Assembly: GCF_025147765.1 (NCBI RefSeq) | Contig: NZ_CP102265.1 | Location: 2,020,296 to 2,052,295, forward strand | Direction of reading: 5' to 3' | Source: Blautia obeum ATCC 29174 | GTDB lineage: Bacteria > Bacillota > Clostridia > Lachnospirales > Lachnospiraceae | Length of the DNA stretch: 32,000 nucleotides | Shown: positions 1,516-19,590 of the stretch, piece after piece | How positions within the stretch are numbered: the stretch's first letter is position 1 | Layout of the letters: every line of letters begins with the position of its first letter | The notes under the pieces: model-generated | The model's input: the letters and a program-made list of their open reading frames with translations, nothing else | Told to the model about the DNA's origin: nothing | Databases searched by the model: none | Position numbers and translations under genes: made by a program

Positions 1516-1525
1516 ATACAGTTTA

Positions 1526-2686
1526 TCAGTTATCCAGTTTCCCATAATAAGCGGAGCGGAAGCCGATGCTCGTGGACGAGTAGGAACGTGGATCGCCCAG
1601 GTTCACGCCGAACACACCAGCACCCGAGGTGTCGTTCCAGTAGCCACCACAGATCGGCAAATATTCTCCGTCTGTACAATCCATATAACAATACGCATCT
1701 GGTTCCCCTGCGAATAATGCCAATTCTTTGAGCTGCTCGCTATTGCAGTTAATCTGTACATCGCTCCATCGTGTTCCAGTATAATCCTGTTCAATCTCTG
1801 GATCCGTTGTAATGCAGATGTTATCATCATCAACTGAAATTCTGATGATTTTTCCCTCATCATCTCTGATTGCTTCCCAGCAGTCCCCTTCCAGCGTCAG
1901 GTCAATATCCATAGCAGCATCATTATTCTTTGCCGTCTCCAGTACACCATTTCTGATTCGCAATCCTCTTACCATTTCCCATACGTTACCGCAAAGGTCA
2001 TGCACTCCGGTTACTTTATGATTATGTGTCCATGTTGCCGGCCCTGATCCTGTCTTTGTTTTTCCGCTCTCTTCAATCGGTTCGCCTTTTTCTTCCAAAT
2101 CTGCATGGTACTTTCCGTAATTCGTATTTCCATGTGGCAAGGTTCCATCTCTCAGGCTGAGATTTGCAAGCAGTCCCCATTCAGCCCTTGTCATCATGTG
2201 CCAGCCTTCACCTTTAGAGAAGCAAACCTCTGCTGCTTCATCATTCGTAATGTTTGTCCAAGGTTTCTGGTATGGAAGGCTATATGGTTTACCGTTGATC
2301 TCGCAGTTTGGGTAAACTGAAATATAAATCGAATCGTACTCTTTTCCTCCAACAATAAATGCCGGATGGACTTTATCACTTCCACCGAATAATTCTTTAT
2401 TTGTCACTTTACGGAACCGGTGCATAAATGATGGGATTCCTGCGTTATCGTAAATTGCTACAACTTCATGCTCCACGCCATTCTCCACCTGATCTGTTGG
2501 TGTTATCTGTTCTTCTGTACCACTTTTTTTCGGTTTAATAACCGCAGCAAATACAGACATAGATTCCGCTTCTTTCTTTTTTCTTGCAGCAAACAGCTTT
2601 GCTCTCACCATTTCTTCTGAAACAAATTCCTTAGAGCCTTTCGCTTTTACTGTAAATTCCCTTGCTTTAAAAACTGCTTTTGCCAT
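1526..2686 (-). CDS. DGR target protein 2 (FGE-sulfatase / C-type-lectin-fold, variable C-terminus)
   Basis: 386-aa ORF, paralogous to the 18544-19590 product (shared HPAF.., ..GWHMMTRAEWGLLA.., ..GNVWEMV.. motifs). The C-terminal ...LPICGGYWNDTSGAGVFGVNLGDPRSYSSTSIGFRSAYYGKLDN is encoded by VR2. Confidence 0.85.
   Translation of the reverse strand: MAKAVFKAREFTVKAKGSKEFVSEEMVRAKLFAARKKKEAESMSVFAAVIKPKKSGTEEQITPTDQVENGVEHEVVAIYDNAGIPSFMHRFRKVTNKELFGGSDKVHPAFIVGGKEYDSIYISVYPNCEINGKPYSLPYQKPWTNITNDEAAEVCFSKGEGWHMMTRAEWGLLANLSLRDGTLPHGNTNYGKYHADLEEKGEPIEESGKTKTGSGPATWTHNHKVTGVHDLCGNVWEMVRGLRIRNGVLETAKNNDAAMDIDLTLEGDCWEAIRDDEGKIIRISVDDDNICITTDPEIEQDYTGTRWSDVQINCNSEQLKELALFAGEPDAYCYMDCTDGEYLPICGGYWNDTSGAGVFGVNLGDPRSYSSTSIGFRSAYYGKLDN
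1550..1661 (-). repeat. DGR variable repeat VR2
   Basis: 112 nt align without gaps to TR 17884-17995. By my hand count there are 13 mismatches, all at plus-strand T of the TR, which is A on the coding strand. Confidence 0.9.
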
Positions 2687-4359: not shown

Positions 4360-5268
4360 TCAACTCCTCCAACTCTTTTTTACTCTTTCCAGTGAATATC
4401 TGGCATTATCTGTAAGCTGTCTCTGCCAGCAATTATTTTTCCGGCTCCATCTAAAGCCATTCTTTTTAAGAATATCTCTTACTTCCGCTTCCGGTTTACC
4501 ATCAAAGAAAAGCTGTAAACGCATGATTTCCGTATTTTCTACGATGCGGAAATACTCATTTTCACTTTCTGTATTTCCTTCCGTTTTAGCCGCTCTGAGC
4601 TTCTTGAGTCTGCCTTCTATCCGGTGAATCTCTGCATTATTGTTTGAAAGCTGGTATGTGGCAAAAGGCTTGTCCTCATAATGCCAGTCCTTCTGCATTT
4701 TCTCTTTCAGGCTATCGATCTGTTCCTGTGTCAATACAGGGCATCCATCTAATGTTTTATTCTTTCTGTAGTAGGCATTTGCAGCTTTCATCTTCTCCTG
4801 CAATTCCTTTAATCCGTTCAGCTTCTTTTCCAAACGTTCTACTGCATCCACATCACCAGATTTAATAATGCCCTTCCCGTTTCCAATGCTCCGGATCCGG
4901 TTAAGCATCTTCTGGATTTCCTGAAATTCTTGATAGTTTCTATCAGATGCAGCATTCTGTTTTTCTTTCTTCTTTACTGGAAAGTTCGCTGGTCCACAGA
5001 TCATAACTGATGGACACATACAACCAATGCGGCTTCGATCATTCAAATTGGCTGCCATCTTTTTGGAATATCTATCTGCAATACCGTATACCCTGTCAGC
5101 TTCCTTTGGTCTGCTCTCAGCAACCTTGTCTGCCAGATCATACGCTTCGTCAACATATCCTTTGTATTCTGCTGTCAGGCTGCCTTCCTTATAATCCCGG
5201 AATGACATCATCTCATGAGCAGACCTTGCGGACTGCTCATTGATCTCGTAATAGATTCGTTCTCTCAT
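4360..5268 (-). CDS. Hypothetical protein, DUF3560-like C-terminus (tentative)
   Basis: 302-aa ORF with an ATGA overlap onto the upstream ATPase gene. The C-terminal ..LFFDGKPEAEVRDILKKNGFRWSRKNNCWQRQ.. resembles a module I recall from DUF3560-type phage/ICE proteins. This is memory-based and needs an HMM check. Confidence 0.55.
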   Translation of the reverse strand: MRERIYYEINEQSARSAHEMMSFRDYKEGSLTAEYKGYVDEAYDLADKVAESRPKEADRVYGIADRYSKKMAANLNDRSRIGCMCPSVMICGPANFPVKKKEKQNAASDRNYQEFQEIQKMLNRIRSIGNGKGIIKSGDVDAVERLEKKLNGLKELQEKMKAANAYYRKNKTLDGCPVLTQEQIDSLKEKMQKDWHYEDKPFATYQLSNNNAEIHRIEGRLKKLRAAKTEGNTESENEYFRIVENTEIMRLQLFFDGKPEAEVRDILKKNGFRWSRKNNCWQRQLTDNARYSLERVKKSWRS

Positions 5269-6920: not shown

Positions 6921-6932
6921 TTAATTGAGTTT
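6913..6932. promoter_or_regulatory. Operator-like inverted repeat S1: AAACTCA-TTTAAT-TGAGTTT
   Basis: Perfect 7+7 inverted repeat with a 6-nt spacer. It lies downstream of promoter A and overlaps the ATG at 6920. Confidence 0.5.
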
Positions 6933-6940
6933 GTAATTAT

Positions 6941-6968
6941 AATTTAACACGCAGTTAGTAGTTGTCAA
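6941..6968 (-). promoter_or_regulatory. Repeated early promoter, copy A (TTGACA-16 nt-TAAATT on minus strand)
   Basis: Part of a ~45-bp sequence that recurs at 9304-9352 and 11641-11689. The -35 lies inside the last codons of the 6955-7320 gene. Confidence 0.5.
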
Positions 6969-7320
6969 TACCCTGTTTTACATTTTCCTCATTTTTGTGA
7001 GTTTTTAATTCCAGTGAATATCCCATTGTTGAAAACAATGCCTGAACACATTCATAGCTGACCTGTTCTTCATCTGTGCTTGCAAAGAAATCTGCAATTT
7101 CTTTTTCTCCCGGATCCGCTGCACCTTTCTTTTTCTCAACTACCAGATCATAGTCCAATGCTGCAAGAATCTTTCTTACTGTCTCGAAATTGGGTCTGGT
7201 ATTCTTATTCAGCTTCGTCCAAAGATTCTGCCGGGTTGTTCCCGCCTTTTCTGCCAATAAATCGTATGTCATTCCTCTGTTTGACATTTCCTCTTTGATA
7301 AATTCTACAATGTTCTGCAT
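6955..7320 (-). CDS. XRE-family helix-turn-helix transcriptional regulator
   Basis: 121-aa ORF. ..MTYDLLAEKAGTTRQNLWTKLNKNTRPNFETVRKILAAL.. is a typical HTH_XRE core. Confidence 0.75.
   Translation of the reverse strand: MQNIVEFIKEEMSNRGMTYDLLAEKAGTTRQNLWTKLNKNTRPNFETVRKILAALDYDLVVEKKKGAADPGEKEIADFFASTDEEQVSYECVQALFSTMGYSLELKTHKNEENVKQGIDNY
6985..7004. promoter_or_regulatory. Operator-like site S2: TTCCTCA-TTTTTG-TGAGTTT
   Basis: Same CTCA-N6-TGAG core. It lies 17 nt upstream of the promoter A -35. Confidence 0.4.
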
Positions 7321-9290: not shown

Positions 9291-9310
9291 CAACTCGTTC
9301 TTATGAGTTT
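9291..9310. promoter_or_regulatory. Operator-like site S4: CAACTCG-TTCTTA-TGAGTTT
   Basis: Directly abuts the -10 of promoter B, in the +1 region. Confidence 0.5.
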
Positions 9311-9338
9311 AATATAACACGTAGGTTAGTAGTGTCAA
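9311..9338 (-). promoter_or_regulatory. Repeated early promoter, copy B (TTGACA-16 nt-TGtTATATT on minus strand)
   Basis: Consensus -35 plus an extended -10, within the ~45-bp repeat shared with copies A and C. Confidence 0.6.
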
Positions 9339-9376
9339 TACCCTCTTTTACAAAAAATGAGAAAAAAATTTAAGGA

Positions 9377-10555: not shown

Positions 10556-10825
10556 TCATATAATTTCCAGAAGCCACAAAATAAACATAATTCCTGGAAC
10601 TCCTACAGAAATTGCTCCAAGAAGCGCAGCGGTGATATTCGATTCAATTTCCTCTTTTCTCTTCGCCTCTATTTTGCGGTTTCTTCTTTCTCTTTCATTG
10701 CAGTATCTTAATATTCTTTCTGATTCCTGAATGGTCCTCTCGCTTCCGTATTCTTCCACAATTGACCATTCTCCAAAATCTGCAATCGTTACATAACCGT
10801 CCATCATTCTATGCCCCTTTTTCAT
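10556..10825 (-). CDS. Hypothetical protein with C-terminal transmembrane helix
   Basis: 89-aa ORF with the hydrophobic tail ..AALLGAISVGVPGIMFILWLLEII. The start is uncertain (10825, 10807 or 10804). Confidence 0.5.
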   Translation of the reverse strand: MKKGHRMMDGYVTIADFGEWSIVEEYGSERTIQESERILRYCNERERRNRKIEAKRKEEIESNITAALLGAISVGVPGIMFILWLLEII

Positions 10826-11190
10826 TCTTTCTCAGTTCTGGCATTTCCCTGTACCGCCCAGGGCGTAGGTTTCAATCTACGAAGTGCTTTCTTTCGTGCC
10901 ATAAAAATAGGCGATTGGGTATGTGAATTTATATGGCTGCCTCATACTTTACAACCTGTGCAGTGCTTCTCCGGTGCTTCCACTCCCGTATCTAATTTCA
11001 CTTTAAAATCAGCAAACTTGTTATCTGCCATTGAGCATTTTCAGGCGTTTTCTGCTCTGTCTTGCTTACCGCCCCTGATTTTCACCTTAAAAATCAGTAA
11101 AACTTGTTGTCCAATACCAACCGCATTGACCTACCATCATCAGCACCAGGCGGTCATTCCTGGTGGACGGTCATTTCTGACCGTTTCGGC

Positions 11191-11585
11191 TTATTCTTTT
11201 TCCCAATATCCATACAGACAGCAAGATCCAGATTCCCAAGTATCGTAGTAATATCCATCCACAACTGCTATACAGTGGTTAGCAACATTCAAAAAAATAT
11301 TCCACTTTTATGATCTTTTGCAAATCGATCAACAGTTGGACGTTTTGAACCCTTTTTATTGCTGATTCCATGATATGTAAAACCATTTTCTTTTAAATAG
11401 CTTTCATAGCATTGCTTTCCGTTTGGCATGCATTGAAGTTTTTTTGCATATGAAATAAGATCATCAAATACCTGCATCCAAGTTTTGCTCATAACTTTTG
11501 TCAATGCTCTTACTACACAATCACCGTACTGATCTTTTAAATCTTTGTCATTAGGCTGATAGTATTTATAGTTTCTGCTTGCCAT
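11191..11585 (-). pseudogene. Frameshifted small Cys...His peptidase-like gene (break at an A7/T7 tract, 11291-11297)
   Basis: The 98-aa ORF stops right after a T7 run (..KSGIFF*). The -1 frame continues with no start codon as LNVANHCIAVVDGYYYDTWESGSCCLYGYWEKE* down to 11191. Joined, the product is ~131 aa with GDCVVRA near the N-terminus and NHC..DTW near the C-terminus. Confidence 0.55.
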
Positions 11586-11627: not shown

Positions 11628-11647
11628 AAACTCGTTTTATTGAGTTT
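11628..11647. promoter_or_regulatory. Operator-like site S6: AAACTCG-TTTTAT-TGAGTTT
   Basis: Directly abuts the -10 of promoter C. A partial extra copy (CGTTATGTTGAGTTT) lies at 11602-11616. Confidence 0.5.
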
Positions 11648-11675
11648 AATATAACACGTAGTAGGTAGGTGTCAA
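11648..11675 (-). promoter_or_regulatory. Repeated early promoter, copy C (TTGACA-16 nt-TGtTATATT on minus strand)
   Basis: Same ~45-bp repeat as copies A and B. It heads the minus-strand early block. Confidence 0.6.
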
Positions 11676-11718
11676 TACCCTATTTTACATAATTTGAGTT
11701 TTTTCTTAGTGAAGCTCA

Positions 11719-16382: not shown

Positions 16383-16578
16383 TGTTCTCACCTCCTTCCC
16401 ATCCTGACGTTTCTTCTTGCCATTCCACATCGTCTGCATCTGCATACGGGCGGCACATGGCCTCTATGACATCCAGATCATTGTGTATCTGGTCAAGACT
16501 TTTGTTTGATTTTCCGTCAATATAGAACAGGAGGTCATAAACCGCAGACCATAGCTTCGCTATAATTTTCAACTTCAT
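16375..16578 (-). CDS. Hypothetical small protein
   Basis: 67-aa ORF. Its start overlaps the RT 3' end by 44 nt (AGGAG upstream) and its stop overlaps the XhlA-like ATG. Confidence 0.4.
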   Translation of the reverse strand: MKLKIIAKLWSAVYDLLFYIDGKSNKSLDQIHNDLDVIEAMCRPYADADDVEWQEETSGWEGGENNG

Positions 16579-17674
16579 AGGCTATTTCTCCTACAACCTT
16601 GTTTCTATCAAGAACCACTGAATCTATCAGTTCTTTTCGGAACTCTTTGCAATCGCAGTGATCCAGCATGCCCAAATAAGATTTTAATGTGGCAGTTACC
16701 ACTTCCATCTCGATCAGTCCGGCGTTGTATTCCTCTACTTTTCTTCTGAGATGGCGCTTCATCTCCAATGTGGTGCTTTTCCTGATAGTTACATAATGCG
16801 GCCATATCCGATAGCCTACGAACTCTATGCCCTGCGATATCGGGCGTATGCAAGTCTTTTGGTTCAGAGATAACCGTAACGTTGTTTCCACAAACTTCTG
16901 GATTTCATCTTTCCACATGTGAAGCTGCTCTTTGCTGTCCGACAGAATGATAATATCATCCATGTATCTGACATAAAAATGGATGCACAGTGTCCTTTTA
17001 CAGAACTGATCCAGTGCATCCAAGTAAATATTTGCAAATACCTGCGATAGCAGATTTCCTACCGGCATACCTACATCGTAAAGCCTTTCCTCCAAAGGCA
17101 CCTCTCCAGGACCTTTACCAGGCGGTAATCCAAATGGCGTATACTGGCAATCTATAATGTTATACAGGACTTGCAAAAGCTGTTGATCTTTGATTTTCCT
17201 TGCCAGAATCTCCTTCAATACTTCGTGAGATATCCGGTAAAAATATTTGCTGATATCCAGTTTAAGGTAATACCATGTGCCAGGCTTATGTTCTACGGAT
17301 TTTATCCAATATCGCAGTCTTTGCATGGCAGCAAGCGAACCTCTTCCTGGAATACAGCCGTAAGTATCTTTGATATATCCTTTTACCAACAGGGGATTTA
17401 TGACACGATATATCGCCCATTGCACAATGCGGTGATAAAACGTGATTGACATGATCATTCTCTTTTTAGGTTCATAAACATAAAAGATATAATACTTATC
17501 AATCGTGTATTTACCAGAGCGTACATCCTGTTGTATCTGTTCAATGACATTCCAAATATCGTGCTGGACGCGAAGAACATCTTTGTTGTATCTTCTGCCT
17601 TTTGACGCATCTTGGATTGCCTCATACAGATTGTCGTCAGAGAATATCAAGTCAAAAACATGCTTGATTTTCAT
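16535..17674 (-). CDS. DGR reverse transcriptase
   Basis: 379-aa ORF with the YMDD catalytic box (..VRYMDDIIILSD..) and the VGNLLSQ motif, the [LIV]GxxxSQ signature typical of DGR RTs. It is adjacent to the TR and avd. Confidence 0.9.
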   Translation of the reverse strand: MKIKHVFDLIFSDDNLYEAIQDASKGRRYNKDVLRVQHDIWNVIEQIQQDVRSGKYTIDKYYIFYVYEPKKRMIMSITFYHRIVQWAIYRVINPLLVKGYIKDTYGCIPGRGSLAAMQRLRYWIKSVEHKPGTWYYLKLDISKYFYRISHEVLKEILARKIKDQQLLQVLYNIIDCQYTPFGLPPGKGPGEVPLEERLYDVGMPVGNLLSQVFANIYLDALDQFCKRTLCIHFYVRYMDDIIILSDSKEQLHMWKDEIQKFVETTLRLSLNQKTCIRPISQGIEFVGYRIWPHYVTIRKSTTLEMKRHLRRKVEEYNAGLIEMEVVTATLKSYLGMLDHCDCKEFRKELIDSVVLDRNKVVGEIAYEVENYSEAMVCGL

Positions 17675-17883
17675 TGATTTTCCCTCTGTTTTTCATTATT
17701 TCGTTGTGTTTGGCGGTTTTCTCATAGGTACTGGCAGCCTCCACAACCGATGCCACATCTGCAGAACGCCATCAACATAGCACCATTTTTCTCCTGCTTT
17801 TCAGCCGGAGTGGAAACAGGTTCCTTTATCCCCTCGCACTGTCGGTAGTCCTTGGAGTTTCCGATTCTGGCATATGAGGGTAG

Positions 17884-17999
17884 AGCGGAGCGGAAGCCGA
17901 TGTTCGTGTTCGAGTTGGAACGTGGATTGTTCAGGTTCACGTTGAACACACCAGCATTCGAGGTGTTGTTCCAGTTGCCACCACAGATCGGCAAACGCT
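17884..17999 (-). repeat. DGR template repeat (TR)
   Basis: 116 nt homologous to VR1 (112 nt to VR2). Read in the VR frame it encodes ..CGGNWNNTSNAGVFNVNLNNPRSNSNTNIGFRSA with 11 Asn codons (9 AAC, 2 AAT). It is non-coding and lies between avd and the RT. Confidence 0.9.
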
Positions 18000-18023
18000 A
18001 TAACCCATTCCCTACGAAAATAC

Positions 18024-18476
18024 TCAATGTCTTTTATATCGACTGTTTCCATATCTGGAGGATTTCTGCTGCTGAGTAGCCGTATTGTCAGCATCAGAGT
18101 TTGCTCCATTCACCGTATTAATAAAACCACCTATCATTCTGCCTATTTCTTCTGAACGTCTAGTCCATTCTTTGTAGCTGGACAGTCCTTTCAGAATATT
18201 CAGATCATATGCTACTTTGATAAATTCTTGCAGAGTTTTATTCTCTCTGTCAAAATCTCCAAGAGTGGTTTTCTTGTAGTATTTCTCCCTGATATCTACT
18301 GATAATCGAAGCAATTTCTTCATGCAATCCATCAGATCGTTTCCGATGGCGTATTTATCTGCAATGCTCCATTTCTTTATAAGCGGATATGCATAGTCTA
18401 TCATGTCTTCGACCTTCTGAAGAATCTGGAAGGAATCATCTTTTGTGACAGTTCCGGTGTTCTGGCTTTCCTCCAT
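18024..18476 (-). CDS. avd: DGR accessory variability determinant (Avd-like four-helix-bundle protein)
   Basis: 150-aa ORF between the target gene and the TR. ..YAYPLIKKWSIADKYAIGNDLMDCMKKLLRLSV..EIGRMIGGFI.. matches the Avd / 23S-rRNA-IVS-protein family pattern. Confidence 0.8.
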   Translation of the reverse strand: MEESQNTGTVTKDDSFQILQKVEDMIDYAYPLIKKWSIADKYAIGNDLMDCMKKLLRLSVDIREKYYKKTTLGDFDRENKTLQEFIKVAYDLNILKGLSSYKEWTRRSEEIGRMIGGFINTVNGANSDADNTATQQQKSSRYGNSRYKRH

Positions 18477-18500
18477 ACTTTCGCAGCCTCCATTTTTCTA

Positions 18501-18522
18501 CTGCCCTACTACCGTAGGGCAG
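18501..18522 (-). promoter_or_regulatory. GC-rich hairpin 36 nt downstream of VR1 (DGR target-recognition hairpin candidate)
   Basis: ctgcccta-ctaccg-tagggcag forms an 8-bp stem with a 6-nt loop. Its counterpart follows VR2 at 1496-1515. Confidence 0.6.
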
Positions 18523-18543
18523 AACAGTACACAGTTCTCAGTT

Positions 18544-19590
18544 TTACAGTTCACAGTAAGCGGAGCGGAAGCCGATGCTCGCGTCCGAGCTGGAACGCGG
18601 ATTGCCCAGGTACACGCTGAACACACCAGCACTCGAGGTGCTGAGCCAGCGGCCACCACAGATCGGCAAACGCTCGCCAGAGTTATTCATATAATGACCA
18701 TCACCACCGTAATCACCACCCGGTTCATCAGGATAAATTAACAAAGCTTTAGCAATCTCAGGAACCGTTAATGCAGAATCAAGTGTCATATTCTGATATG
18801 TGTCACCTCTCCAAGTGTCTTCTGGCGTAATATCACCAGATGTAAGCTGGATATGTCCGCTCACATAGTTATATTTCAGAGTACCGGCAGTTCCAGGCTC
18901 AACCAGTGTGCCATCTGCTGCAATGGCTTTCCAAAGGGTGGAGCTTGCACCCATGCTTGCATCAGCGGCCATGCAGTTTGCATATGGAATGATCTGGATT
19001 TCCCCATTCATCAGTCGCATACCTGCACACCATTCCCAAACATTACCGTTCAGGTCTGCAATTCCATCAGGCATCCAGTTATGGTTCCATGTATTCGGTC
19101 CGGATCCGGTTGCGCATCTGGCAATTTTCCCACTCTCGTAATAAGTCGGAACGCCTTTTTCATGTCCATATGCGTGATCGGCTCCGTAATTGTTATTGCC
19201 TCTCGGCATGGTTCCGTTTTTACGACACCATAAAGCAATAGCAGACCACAGGGAATAAGGTGTAAGGCTCCATCCTTTCCCTTTATTTCGACAATATGTA
19301 ACTGCCTGATCGAAATTAAGGCTTGCTCTTGGGTCACGCATCGGGAGGGAATATCCACGTTCATTCAGGACAATGTTCTGATATTTTGAAACATAGATAA
19401 CGCTCTTTTCTACTCCGTCCACACTGAATGCCGGGTGAATGTTTTCACTTCCTCCTGCAATCAGGTCAGACATTTTCAGTTTCGGGAATGGAACCATTAC
19501 AGAAGGCATTCCCAGATCATCAAATAATACGGTGTTTTTCCCACCGGACAGTGCTTCAATAGATAACTTTAAATCGTCAAAATTCGGCAT
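18544..19590 (-). CDS. DGR target protein 1 (FGE-sulfatase / C-type-lectin-fold; likely receptor-binding tail-fibre tip)
   Basis: 348-aa ORF, the last gene of the tail-fibre region. It carries ..GWSLTPYSLWSAIALW.. and ..GNVWEWCAG.. motifs. The C-terminal ..LPICGGRWLSTSSAGVFSVYLGNPRSSSDASIGFRSAYCEL is encoded by VR1. Confidence 0.88.
   Translation of the reverse strand: MPNFDDLKLSIEALSGGKNTVLFDDLGMPSVMVPFPKLKMSDLIAGGSENIHPAFSVDGVEKSVIYVSKYQNIVLNERGYSLPMRDPRASLNFDQAVTYCRNKGKGWSLTPYSLWSAIALWCRKNGTMPRGNNNYGADHAYGHEKGVPTYYESGKIARCATGSGPNTWNHNWMPDGIADLNGNVWEWCAGMRLMNGEIQIIPYANCMAADASMGASSTLWKAIAADGTLVEPGTAGTLKYNYVSGHIQLTSGDITPEDTWRGDTYQNMTLDSALTVPEIAKALLIYPDEPGGDYGGDGHYMNNSGERLPICGGRWLSTSSAGVFSVYLGNPRSSSDASIGFRSAYCEL
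18559..18674 (-). repeat. DGR variable repeat VR1
   Basis: 116 nt align without gaps to TR 17884-17999. By my hand count there are 15 mismatches, all at plus-strand T of the TR, which is A on the coding strand. Confidence 0.9.

Follow-up and report, generated by a model that had tools for sequence, protein, structure and literature searches.

A complete, very probably recently active diversity-generating retroelement with two targets in a Blautia prophage

Diversity-generating retroelements (DGRs) are already known to be abundant in gut phages. A stretch of 32,000 nucleotides (nt) of the genome of Blautia obeum ATCC 29174 (contig NZ_CP102265.1, positions 2,020,296 to 2,052,295; hereafter the window, its first letter being position 1) raises the question of whether such an element is at work there, and on what. 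A non-coding template repeat (TR) lies close to a reverse transcriptase (RT) gene, and two variable repeats (VR1 and VR2), each resembling the TR, form the ends of two protein genes, one of them some 15 kb away. Is this a system that writes altered copies of one repeat into both genes, the remains of such a system, or a family of repeats that ordinary evolution has pulled apart? We argue here that the window very probably holds a complete, recently active, two-target DGR of a Blautia prophage. The coding strand for all its features is the minus strand; the repeats and the two target genes are as follows, IMH standing for the initiation of mutagenic homing element of known DGRs:

17884-17999, minus strand: TR, 116 nt with 28 adenines, non-coding, beginning 25 nt past the avd stop codon
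18559-18674, minus strand: VR1, 116 nt aligned to the TR, its GC-rich, IMH-like segment at 18559-18575
1550-1661, minus strand: VR2, 112 nt of homology to the TR
18544-19590, minus strand: target 1, 348 amino acids, a C-type-lectin-fold variable protein by homology, closing the tail/baseplate module
1526-2686, minus strand: target 2, 386 amino acids, a paralogue of target 1 in the early/replication module

An earlier, sequence-only reading of the window had aligned these repeats by hand. When the alignment was recomputed, ungapped and in the coding sense, each of its numbers proved correct: VR1 differs from the TR at 15 of 116 positions and VR2 at 13 of 112, 21 of the 28 TR adenines are changed in at least one VR of the window, and the TR, translated in the VR frame, reads RLPICGGNWNNTSNAGVFNVNLNNPRSNSNTNIGFRSA, with 11 asparagine codons (nine AAC and two AAT). 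The translations of VR1 and VR2 agree with the earlier ones too. The central claim, that the differences are strictly adenine-specific, stands after re-alignment: all 28 mismatches fall on TR adenines (15/15 for VR1, 13/13 for VR2) and none on any other base. Under a hypergeometric model, chance alone would put every mismatch on A with a probability of 1.4e-11 (VR1) or 5.9e-10 (VR2). The same three-copy family was recovered independently by a repeat search of the window. The 3'-terminal 17 nt, TCGGCTTCCGCTCCGCT, are the same in TR, VR1 and VR2, GC-rich and free of adenine, and homology ends abruptly beyond them; on the plus strand this 17-mer (AGCGGAGCGGAAGCCGA) has only three sites in the window, 1550, 17884 and 18559. 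Describing this end as IMH-like is right in that it is GC-rich and identical in the three copies, but it equals only the GC-rich part of an IMH, and no imperfect-homology segment follows the shared 17-mer when the TR is compared with both VRs. Being identical in both, the 17-mer cannot separate VR from TR. As for the proposed repertoire of about 15^11 variants per target, the arithmetic is right (8.6e12) and the figure is a theoretical ceiling.

Beside the TR lie the other parts of the cassette:

16535-17674, minus strand: the DGR reverse transcriptase, 379 amino acids, with YMDD at residue 237 and VGNLLSQ at residue 205
17675-17883, minus strand: the spacer, 209 nt separating TR from RT and forming the non-coding 3' portion of the DGR RNA
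18024-18476, minus strand: avd (accessory variability determinant), 150 amino acids, matching Pfam PF22296 bAvd with E 1.8e-19

The RT matches RVT_1 in Pfam (E 4.5e-22). Its best match in the PDB is 8ub7, a 328-residue RT that aligns as the Bordetella bRT (E 4.9e-40), far ahead of the group II intron RTs (2.9e-17 at best) and of the retron Eco8 RT (about 1e-4). Aligned with Brt from Bordetella phage BPP-1, it is 30% identical over 305 amino acids (E 8e-46), with VGNLLSQ facing IGSLTSQ and YMDD facing YMDD, so that the DGR-type assignment first made from these two motifs is borne out. The gene between target 1 and the TR, previously called Avd-like, scores 70.6 bits on the Pfam bAvd model, above the cut-off of 40, and tblastn with its product returns annotated Avd genes of DGR phages; the PDB holds no sequence match to it at E up to 0.1. 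The order target-avd-TR-RT is, as had been noted, that of BPP-1. Two open reading frames (ORFs) of the region, 17801-18109 (which has no Pfam match) and 17722-17994, were treated as spurious because both overlap the non-coding TR.

The earlier reading had called the element apparently active, and comparison with related genomes gives this wording substance. We set the window against four IMG/VR contigs of 96-98% identity and the prophage of Blautia sp. MSJ-19, which together provide nine VR alleles. The TR is identical at 116 of 116 positions in the window and the four contigs and near-identical in the MSJ-19 prophage. Each genome has its own VR1 allele, and VR2 alleles are likewise private in L085 and L086, the two contigs in which target 2 is covered. 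Over the nine alleles, 119 substitutions lie at TR-adenine positions and 8 elsewhere, and 26 of the 28 adenines vary. The TR of MSJ-19 carries two private non-adenine changes, C37T and C74T; both are also found in the VR1 of MSJ-19, and information therefore flows from TR to VR. In these alignments an adenine-specific, directional transfer is manifest at two targets. Between strains VR1 is about 16% different, against about 8% for the rest of target 1 and 1.3-3.6% for avd-TR-spacer-RT; VR2 differs from those of the two contigs holding target 2 at 12-14% of positions, against about 2% for the rest of the gene. Both targets have therefore been rewritten faster than the phage diverges, with recent turnover, which amounts to strong, though indirect, evidence of mutagenic retrohoming.

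The pattern extends further. About 60 related loci from IMG/VR and GTDB genomes share the same layout, with a TR of 111-118 nt and adenine-only mismatches. Scanning IMG/VR with an exact pattern, the TR with N at each adenine, retrieved three contigs and missed several true VRs, because those hold one or two non-adenine changes. Some relatives, with a 51-53%-identical RT, depart from the single template: their gap between avd and RT consists of three tandem units of about 290 nt, each made of a TR-like copy and a spacer (L122, 2107-2976, from Bacterium 1XD42-1; L123, from Enterocloster aldenensis; L040-L047). In this tandem multi-TR variant a single copy is adenine-only-like when compared with the VR (9 A vs 1 non-A), while the remaining copies differ at many sites other than adenines.

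How would the transfer proceed? Taking BPP-1 as a guide, we infer a cis-primed, adenine-mutagenic synthesis of complementary DNA (cDNA) followed by replacement of the VR. A transcript spanning avd, TR, spacer and RT would be produced, and its structured spacer RNA would recruit the RT-Avd complex and prime cDNA in cis at the TR's 3' end. The RT would then copy the 116-nt TR faithfully while placing random bases opposite its 28 adenines, and the cDNA would replace the homologous VR at the 3' end of the two target genes. The VRs would be the sole recipients, each being followed by a VR-specific CTG array and a GC hairpin with a GRNA loop, both of which are missing at the TR. The outcome would be the diversification of about 15 surface codons on the ligand-binding face of two C-type-lectin-fold proteins.

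The spacer opens with a conserved, structured core, at about 17791-17879, which comprises four helices and a near-invariant AAAGG. Helix P1 pairs CCCTC, located 4 nt past the end of TR/VR homology, with GAGGG about 45 nt downstream, and it encloses P2; P3, P4 and a run of A follow. In an alignment of 29 non-redundant relatives RNAalifold recovered P1-P3 with compensatory changes, and the four-helix model was completed by hand. This model leaves 87.4% of the cells paired, whereas sliding the partners lowers the figure to 40-58%; its covariation score of 0.446 compares with a maximum of 0.176 in the controls and is reached by none of 500 shuffles; double-sided changes are seen in 16 of 23 pairs. 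In BPP-1 the priming adenosine comes from the spacer, which also makes a duplex with the TR's 3' end (bioRxiv 10.1101/2023.10.23.563531). The geometry seen here appears analogous, and the priming nucleotide may be a near-invariant adenine in GAGGGGAUAAAGG, just 3' of P1, in which case cDNA would start 3-4 nt past the end of homology.

Downstream of the VRs, two further elements come into play:

18501-18522, minus strand: VR1 hairpin, CTGCCCTAC-GGTA-GTAGGGCAG, a 9-bp GC-rich stem with a 4-nt GRNA loop
1496-1515, minus strand: VR2 hairpin, TGCCCTGT-GGAA-ACAGGGCA, an 8-bp stem with a 4-nt GRNA loop
18523-18558, minus strand: VR1 CTG array, TACTGTGAACTGTAAAACTGAGAACTGTGTACTGTT, five CTG at a spacing of 7-8 nt, overlapping the final 5 codons of target 1
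1516-1549, minus strand: VR2 CTG array, three CTG at a spacing of 8 nt

The hairpins stand 36 nt past VR1 and 34 nt past VR2, and their stems covary among relatives; downstream of the TR both hairpin and array are absent. The hairpins fit the rule established by Guo et al. 2011 (PMC3240598), where GC stems of 7-10 bp with a 5'-GRNA loop, 4-34 bp from the VR, are needed for efficient homing. Could they simply be intrinsic terminators? Past the VR1 hairpin comes TAGAAAAAT, which has no T-run, and the array after VR2 of the Faecalibacterium phage Lagaffe lies in coding sequence; termination is therefore not a general explanation.

The CTG array deserves separate attention. Among 26 non-redundant relatives, a chain of at least three CTG follows the VR in 21 and one of at least four in 17, whereas shuffled sequences give a chain of three in 0.1% of trials. 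In the 50 nt past the TR the chain never exceeds one CTG (25/25 cases examined), and none of the other trinucleotides is chained like CTG. The array is also found past the second-target VRs of relatives and past both VRs of Lagaffe; it is present in Bacillus phage BalMu-1 and Vibrio phage VP58.5, takes a TTG variant form in Pseudoalteromonas phage ACA1, and is absent in the archaeal virus ANMV-1. The text of Guo et al. 2011 and that of Wu et al. 2018 make no mention of a periodic CTG array. Wu et al. 2018 did observe, however, that some DGRs have identical IMH and IMH*, so that recognition must extend downstream. The GC-rich ends of TR and VR are likewise identical here, which is why we propose that array and hairpin together may identify the recipient VR. 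To go further is a tentative step, and one we consider rather doubtful: the array (3-5 copies of roughly N-A-A-C/T-T-G, in a VR-to-hairpin gap of 26-40 nt) would be an undescribed cis-element marking DGR recipients across a large clade. That clade spans DGRs of Lachnospiraceae, Faecalibacterium, Bacillus and Vibrio/VHML-type phages; in this reading the array would do there what the discriminating half, 21 bp long, does in the IMH of BPP-1, and it could offer a platform to which the RT-Avd-RNA particle, or a host factor acting on the sense strand, binds. If true, this would explain how a TR and a VR with identical GC-rich ends are distinguished. A possible pairing of the array with a conserved single-stranded CAGU of the spacer RNA (ACTG-CAGU, TCTG-CAGA) is a correlation drawn from about two lineages, with BalMu-1 and the related loci L127 and L130 as exceptions.

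What, then, is being diversified? In both targets the VR is at the C-terminus. Target 1, the VR included, aligns from end to end with PDB 5VF4 (E 1.6e-61); this entry was identified as TaqVP, the DGR variable protein of Thermus aquaticus (bioRxiv 10.1101/432187). It further matches phrog_2889 (E 8e-135) and the tail-protein phrog_5302 (E 8.8e-17), and both targets are members of phrog_2889 with a weak match to the tail-protein PHROG. Judged by this homology, the VR of both targets sits in a variation-tolerant C-type lectin fold. The alignment with TaqVP includes the C-terminal VR pattern ...LPI.GG.W......G.......PR.......G.R.A; TaqVP is a chromosomal protein of a thermophile, in contrast with target 1, which belongs to a phage tail module, and it also differs from target 2, where an extra N-terminal stretch of about 55 amino acids has no family match. 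Target 2 is 39% identical to target 1, and neither its N-terminal extension nor the neighbouring ORFs yielded anything from Pfam or PHROGs.

Gene neighbourhood separates the two proteins. Upstream of target 1 come a 1545-amino-acid tape-measure protein, then LysM-type tail, baseplate J-like and wedge proteins, which form a PBSX/Xkd-like tail module; the earlier remark that target 1 is the last gene of the tail region is correct, as it follows this tape-measure/baseplate module. Target 1 is most likely a receptor-binding protein, to judge from synteny and homology. Downstream of the RT are a holin-like protein and an endolysin, then a regulatory region, after which an early operon encodes a helix-turn-helix regulator, a primase-like protein, target 2 and SSB. 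Target 2 thus stands between the primase-like gene (4360-5268) and SSB (181-630), about 15 kb from the DGR cassette, and it may be a non-virion diversified binding protein.

Megablast found no DNA-level relatives of the cassette among 50,697 GenBank phages, and relatives were for that reason sought by protein search. The isolated phages closest in RT identity are Clostridium phage Saumur (49%) and Faecalibacterium phage Lagaffe (42%). Over 12-21 kb, three IMG/VR contigs (L001-L003) match the window at 96.7-98.3% identity. In Blautia sp. MSJ-19 an RT that is 96% identical is encoded on a contig of 243 kb, and further relatives occur in other Blautia and Lachnospiraceae genomes; we place the element in a Blautia prophage, temperate, PBSX-like and of myovirus type, in the Lachnospiraceae.

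In the regulatory region, a type II hammerhead ribozyme at 11125-11191 on the minus strand matches the full length of Rfam model RF02276 (50.2 bits against a gathering score of 37); it occupies a minus-strand intergenic gap, antisense to a probably spurious ORF (10811-11248), and is found in the related contigs L002 and L003 as well, and not in Lagaffe. A repeat of about 52 nt occurs three times in the window, at 6931-6982, 9301-9352 and 11638-11689, with a spacing of about 2.35 kb. On the minus strand it reads TGTAAAA.AGGGTATTGACA-N16-17-(TG)TTATATT/TAAATT and, having TTGACA at -35 and an extended -10, resembles a strong promoter of the sigma-A type; its conserved flanks may be operators. The three copies are probably co-regulated early promoters.

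Placed beside the paradigm of the field, mtd-avd-TR-brt of BPP-1, the system looks familiar. Gene order and strand logic are the same, as are the SQ-type motif of a 30%-identical RT, the presence of Avd, a VR at the C-terminus of a C-type-lectin-fold tail protein, an AAC-rich TR, a GC-rich segment common to the ends of TR and VR, a hairpin with a 4-nt GRNA loop after the VR only, and a structured spacer between TR and RT. The differences are nevertheless many. Host phylum and virion type are not the same: BPP-1 is a Bordetella podovirus, whereas the element of the window belongs to a Blautia prophage with PBSX-like baseplate genes; the target is Mtd-like there and TaqVP-like here, where there are two, one of them about 15 kb off. 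BPP-1 has a 21-bp IMH/IMH* pair with 5 mismatches, including two CTG, 10 nt apart, in the 21-bp IMH element, the second of which is gone in IMH*, whereas here TR/VR homology is nil past the GC-rich segment. Its spacer is 140 nt long, against 209 nt here.

Two phages come closer in their RT. In Lagaffe (Lagaffevirus), baseplate, target gp26, Avd, TR, RT, lysis and lysogeny/regulatory genes follow in the same order, and a second, SUMF1-like target, gp40, heads the recombination/replication module, before exonuclease, Gam, ERF and SSB; both VRs are adenine-only against one TR, and a CTG-type array follows each. Lagaffe differs by its host (Faecalibacterium rather than Lachnospiraceae/Blautia), by an RT that is 42% identical, by a VR2 internal to gp40 with a coding array and no hairpin within the 90 nt inspected, and by its array unit, AATCTG vs AACTG. 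Saumur, a phage of Enterocloster clostridioformis with a 49%-identical RT, has target-Avd-TR-RT after the baseplate genes and then lysis genes, a TR of 111 nt whose 14 mismatches all fall on adenines, and, after its VR, an AACTG array followed by a GGTA-loop hairpin; it has no DNA-level similarity to the window, and a single VR lies within the 13 kb covered. Two VRs and cross-genome adenine-specific variation have been published for Lagaffe and Faecalibacterium prophages (PMC11792537), and phage DGRs often have several targets, or targets that are not adjacent (Wu et al. 2018). The architecture, distant second target included, is thus already published for related gut phages (PMC11792537), and the element is a textbook DGR, not a new kind of element. 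What is added is the evidence of activity, the host and the CTG array.

Several observations weigh against a live, tropism-switching DGR, or at least temper it. The support for activity is indirect, as it comes from cross-strain comparison. Outside its VR, target 1 is already about 8% divergent from the closest strains, so that the excess in VR1 is just about two-fold in amount, although the adenine-only pattern is still unambiguous. Of the eight non-adenine changes, three are one recurring AT-to-CG replacement at TR positions 11-12, for which the canonical mechanism has no explanation. Avd scores 65.1 bits on the NCBIfam DivGenRetAVD model, under its curated cut-off of 80, and the FGE-sulfatase matches of both targets in Pfam fall below the gathering score. 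Finally, we infer from synteny and homology that the DGR drives variation of host range or tropism, and the roles given to the CTG array and the spacer helices are likewise putative.

Two of these points can be described further. The AT-to-CG site corresponds to 17988-17989 of the window, where GATC becomes GCGC and isoleucine becomes arginine; the alleles concerned are VR1 of L003, VR2 of L086 and VR1 of L082, three independent cases involving both targets, and the T changes always with the adjacent A. The cause could be dinucleotide misincorporation, selection or conversion between VRs. As for the scaffold of target 1, the region outside VR1 (18675-19590) that is about 8% divergent was compared with the three closest contigs, and its divergence suggests either recombination and mosaicism or a faster evolution of the receptor-binding gene beyond the part that the DGR would write.

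How do other accounts of the locus fare? The one we take most seriously, while judging it very unlikely, is that of a fossil, in which diversification is past, the cassette is now inert and the differences between VR and TR are relics. Read-level variation was lacking in culture for the relatives Lelie, Lagaffe_CP and CP11 (PMC11792537), and what speaks for activity in the genome of the window is sequence comparison. A fossil, however, would hardly keep RT, avd and both targets as intact ORFs with catalytic motifs, nor TR, spacer helices, IMH-like end and hairpins all conserved; moreover, genomes just 2-3% apart hold different alleles of VR1 and VR2, so that turnover is faster than the background divergence of the phage. 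A shade less probable still is a DGR with target 1 as its sole live target, VR2 being a decaying remnant or the property of another DGR outside the window. To be sure, VR2 lies in a non-structural module, some 15 kb away from the RT, and its homology to the TR is 4 nt shorter. Yet its 13 differences all fall on adenines of this TR, it has its own CTG array and GRNA hairpin, its adenine-position alleles differ in two related genomes where the rest of the gene is about 98% identical, and a syntenic second target is kept in relatives down to 42% RT identity, Lagaffe gp40 among them.

Two further accounts would dispense with the retroelement altogether, and to each we grant a negligible probability. 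Ordinary paralogous repeats might have diverged by point mutation with positive selection or recombination, without any reverse transcription: targets 1 and 2 are true paralogues (39% identity), and fast evolution is common in receptor-binding tips. Point mutation and selection do not, however, produce a pattern that is specific for base and strand, and here 28/28 differences in the window and 119/127 across strains lie on one base of one copy; this invariant copy is non-coding and placed between Avd and a DGR-type RT, and the boundary of the repeat is sharp and the same in all copies. Alternatively, the RT might come from a group II intron, a retron or a defence system, its nearness to the repeats being coincidental. 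Its best NCBIfam model is indeed a group II intron RT/maturase (E 2.3e-31), with weaker matches to Drt3a, Drt2 and retron models, in a library that appears to have no DGR-RT model. That group II score is nonetheless 109 bits against a cut-off of 300, the Bordetella bRT leads the PDB matches by 23 orders of magnitude, the closest phage RTs inspected (Saumur, Lagaffe, BalMu-1, VP585, ACA1) adjoin an annotated Avd and target, and an Rfam scan of the window found neither group II intron nor retron RNA.

A complete, recently active DGR of a Blautia prophage, working on two targets, is the reading that we retain, and its interest lies in what it offers to the biology of the family. It is not yet understood how the cDNA of a DGR locates the VR and comes to replace it (PMC12875486), and a conserved, periodic, VR-specific motif is a concrete element to mutate in reconstituted systems. 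The practical value of the locus comes from a cultivable host (Blautia sp. MSJ-19, with a 96%-identical element), from two targets located in different modules and from strain-level alleles that are public. Last, the second diversified lectin-fold protein sits in the early/replication module here as it does in Lagaffe, and this conserved placement makes it conceivable that some phage DGR targets are something other than receptor-binding proteins.

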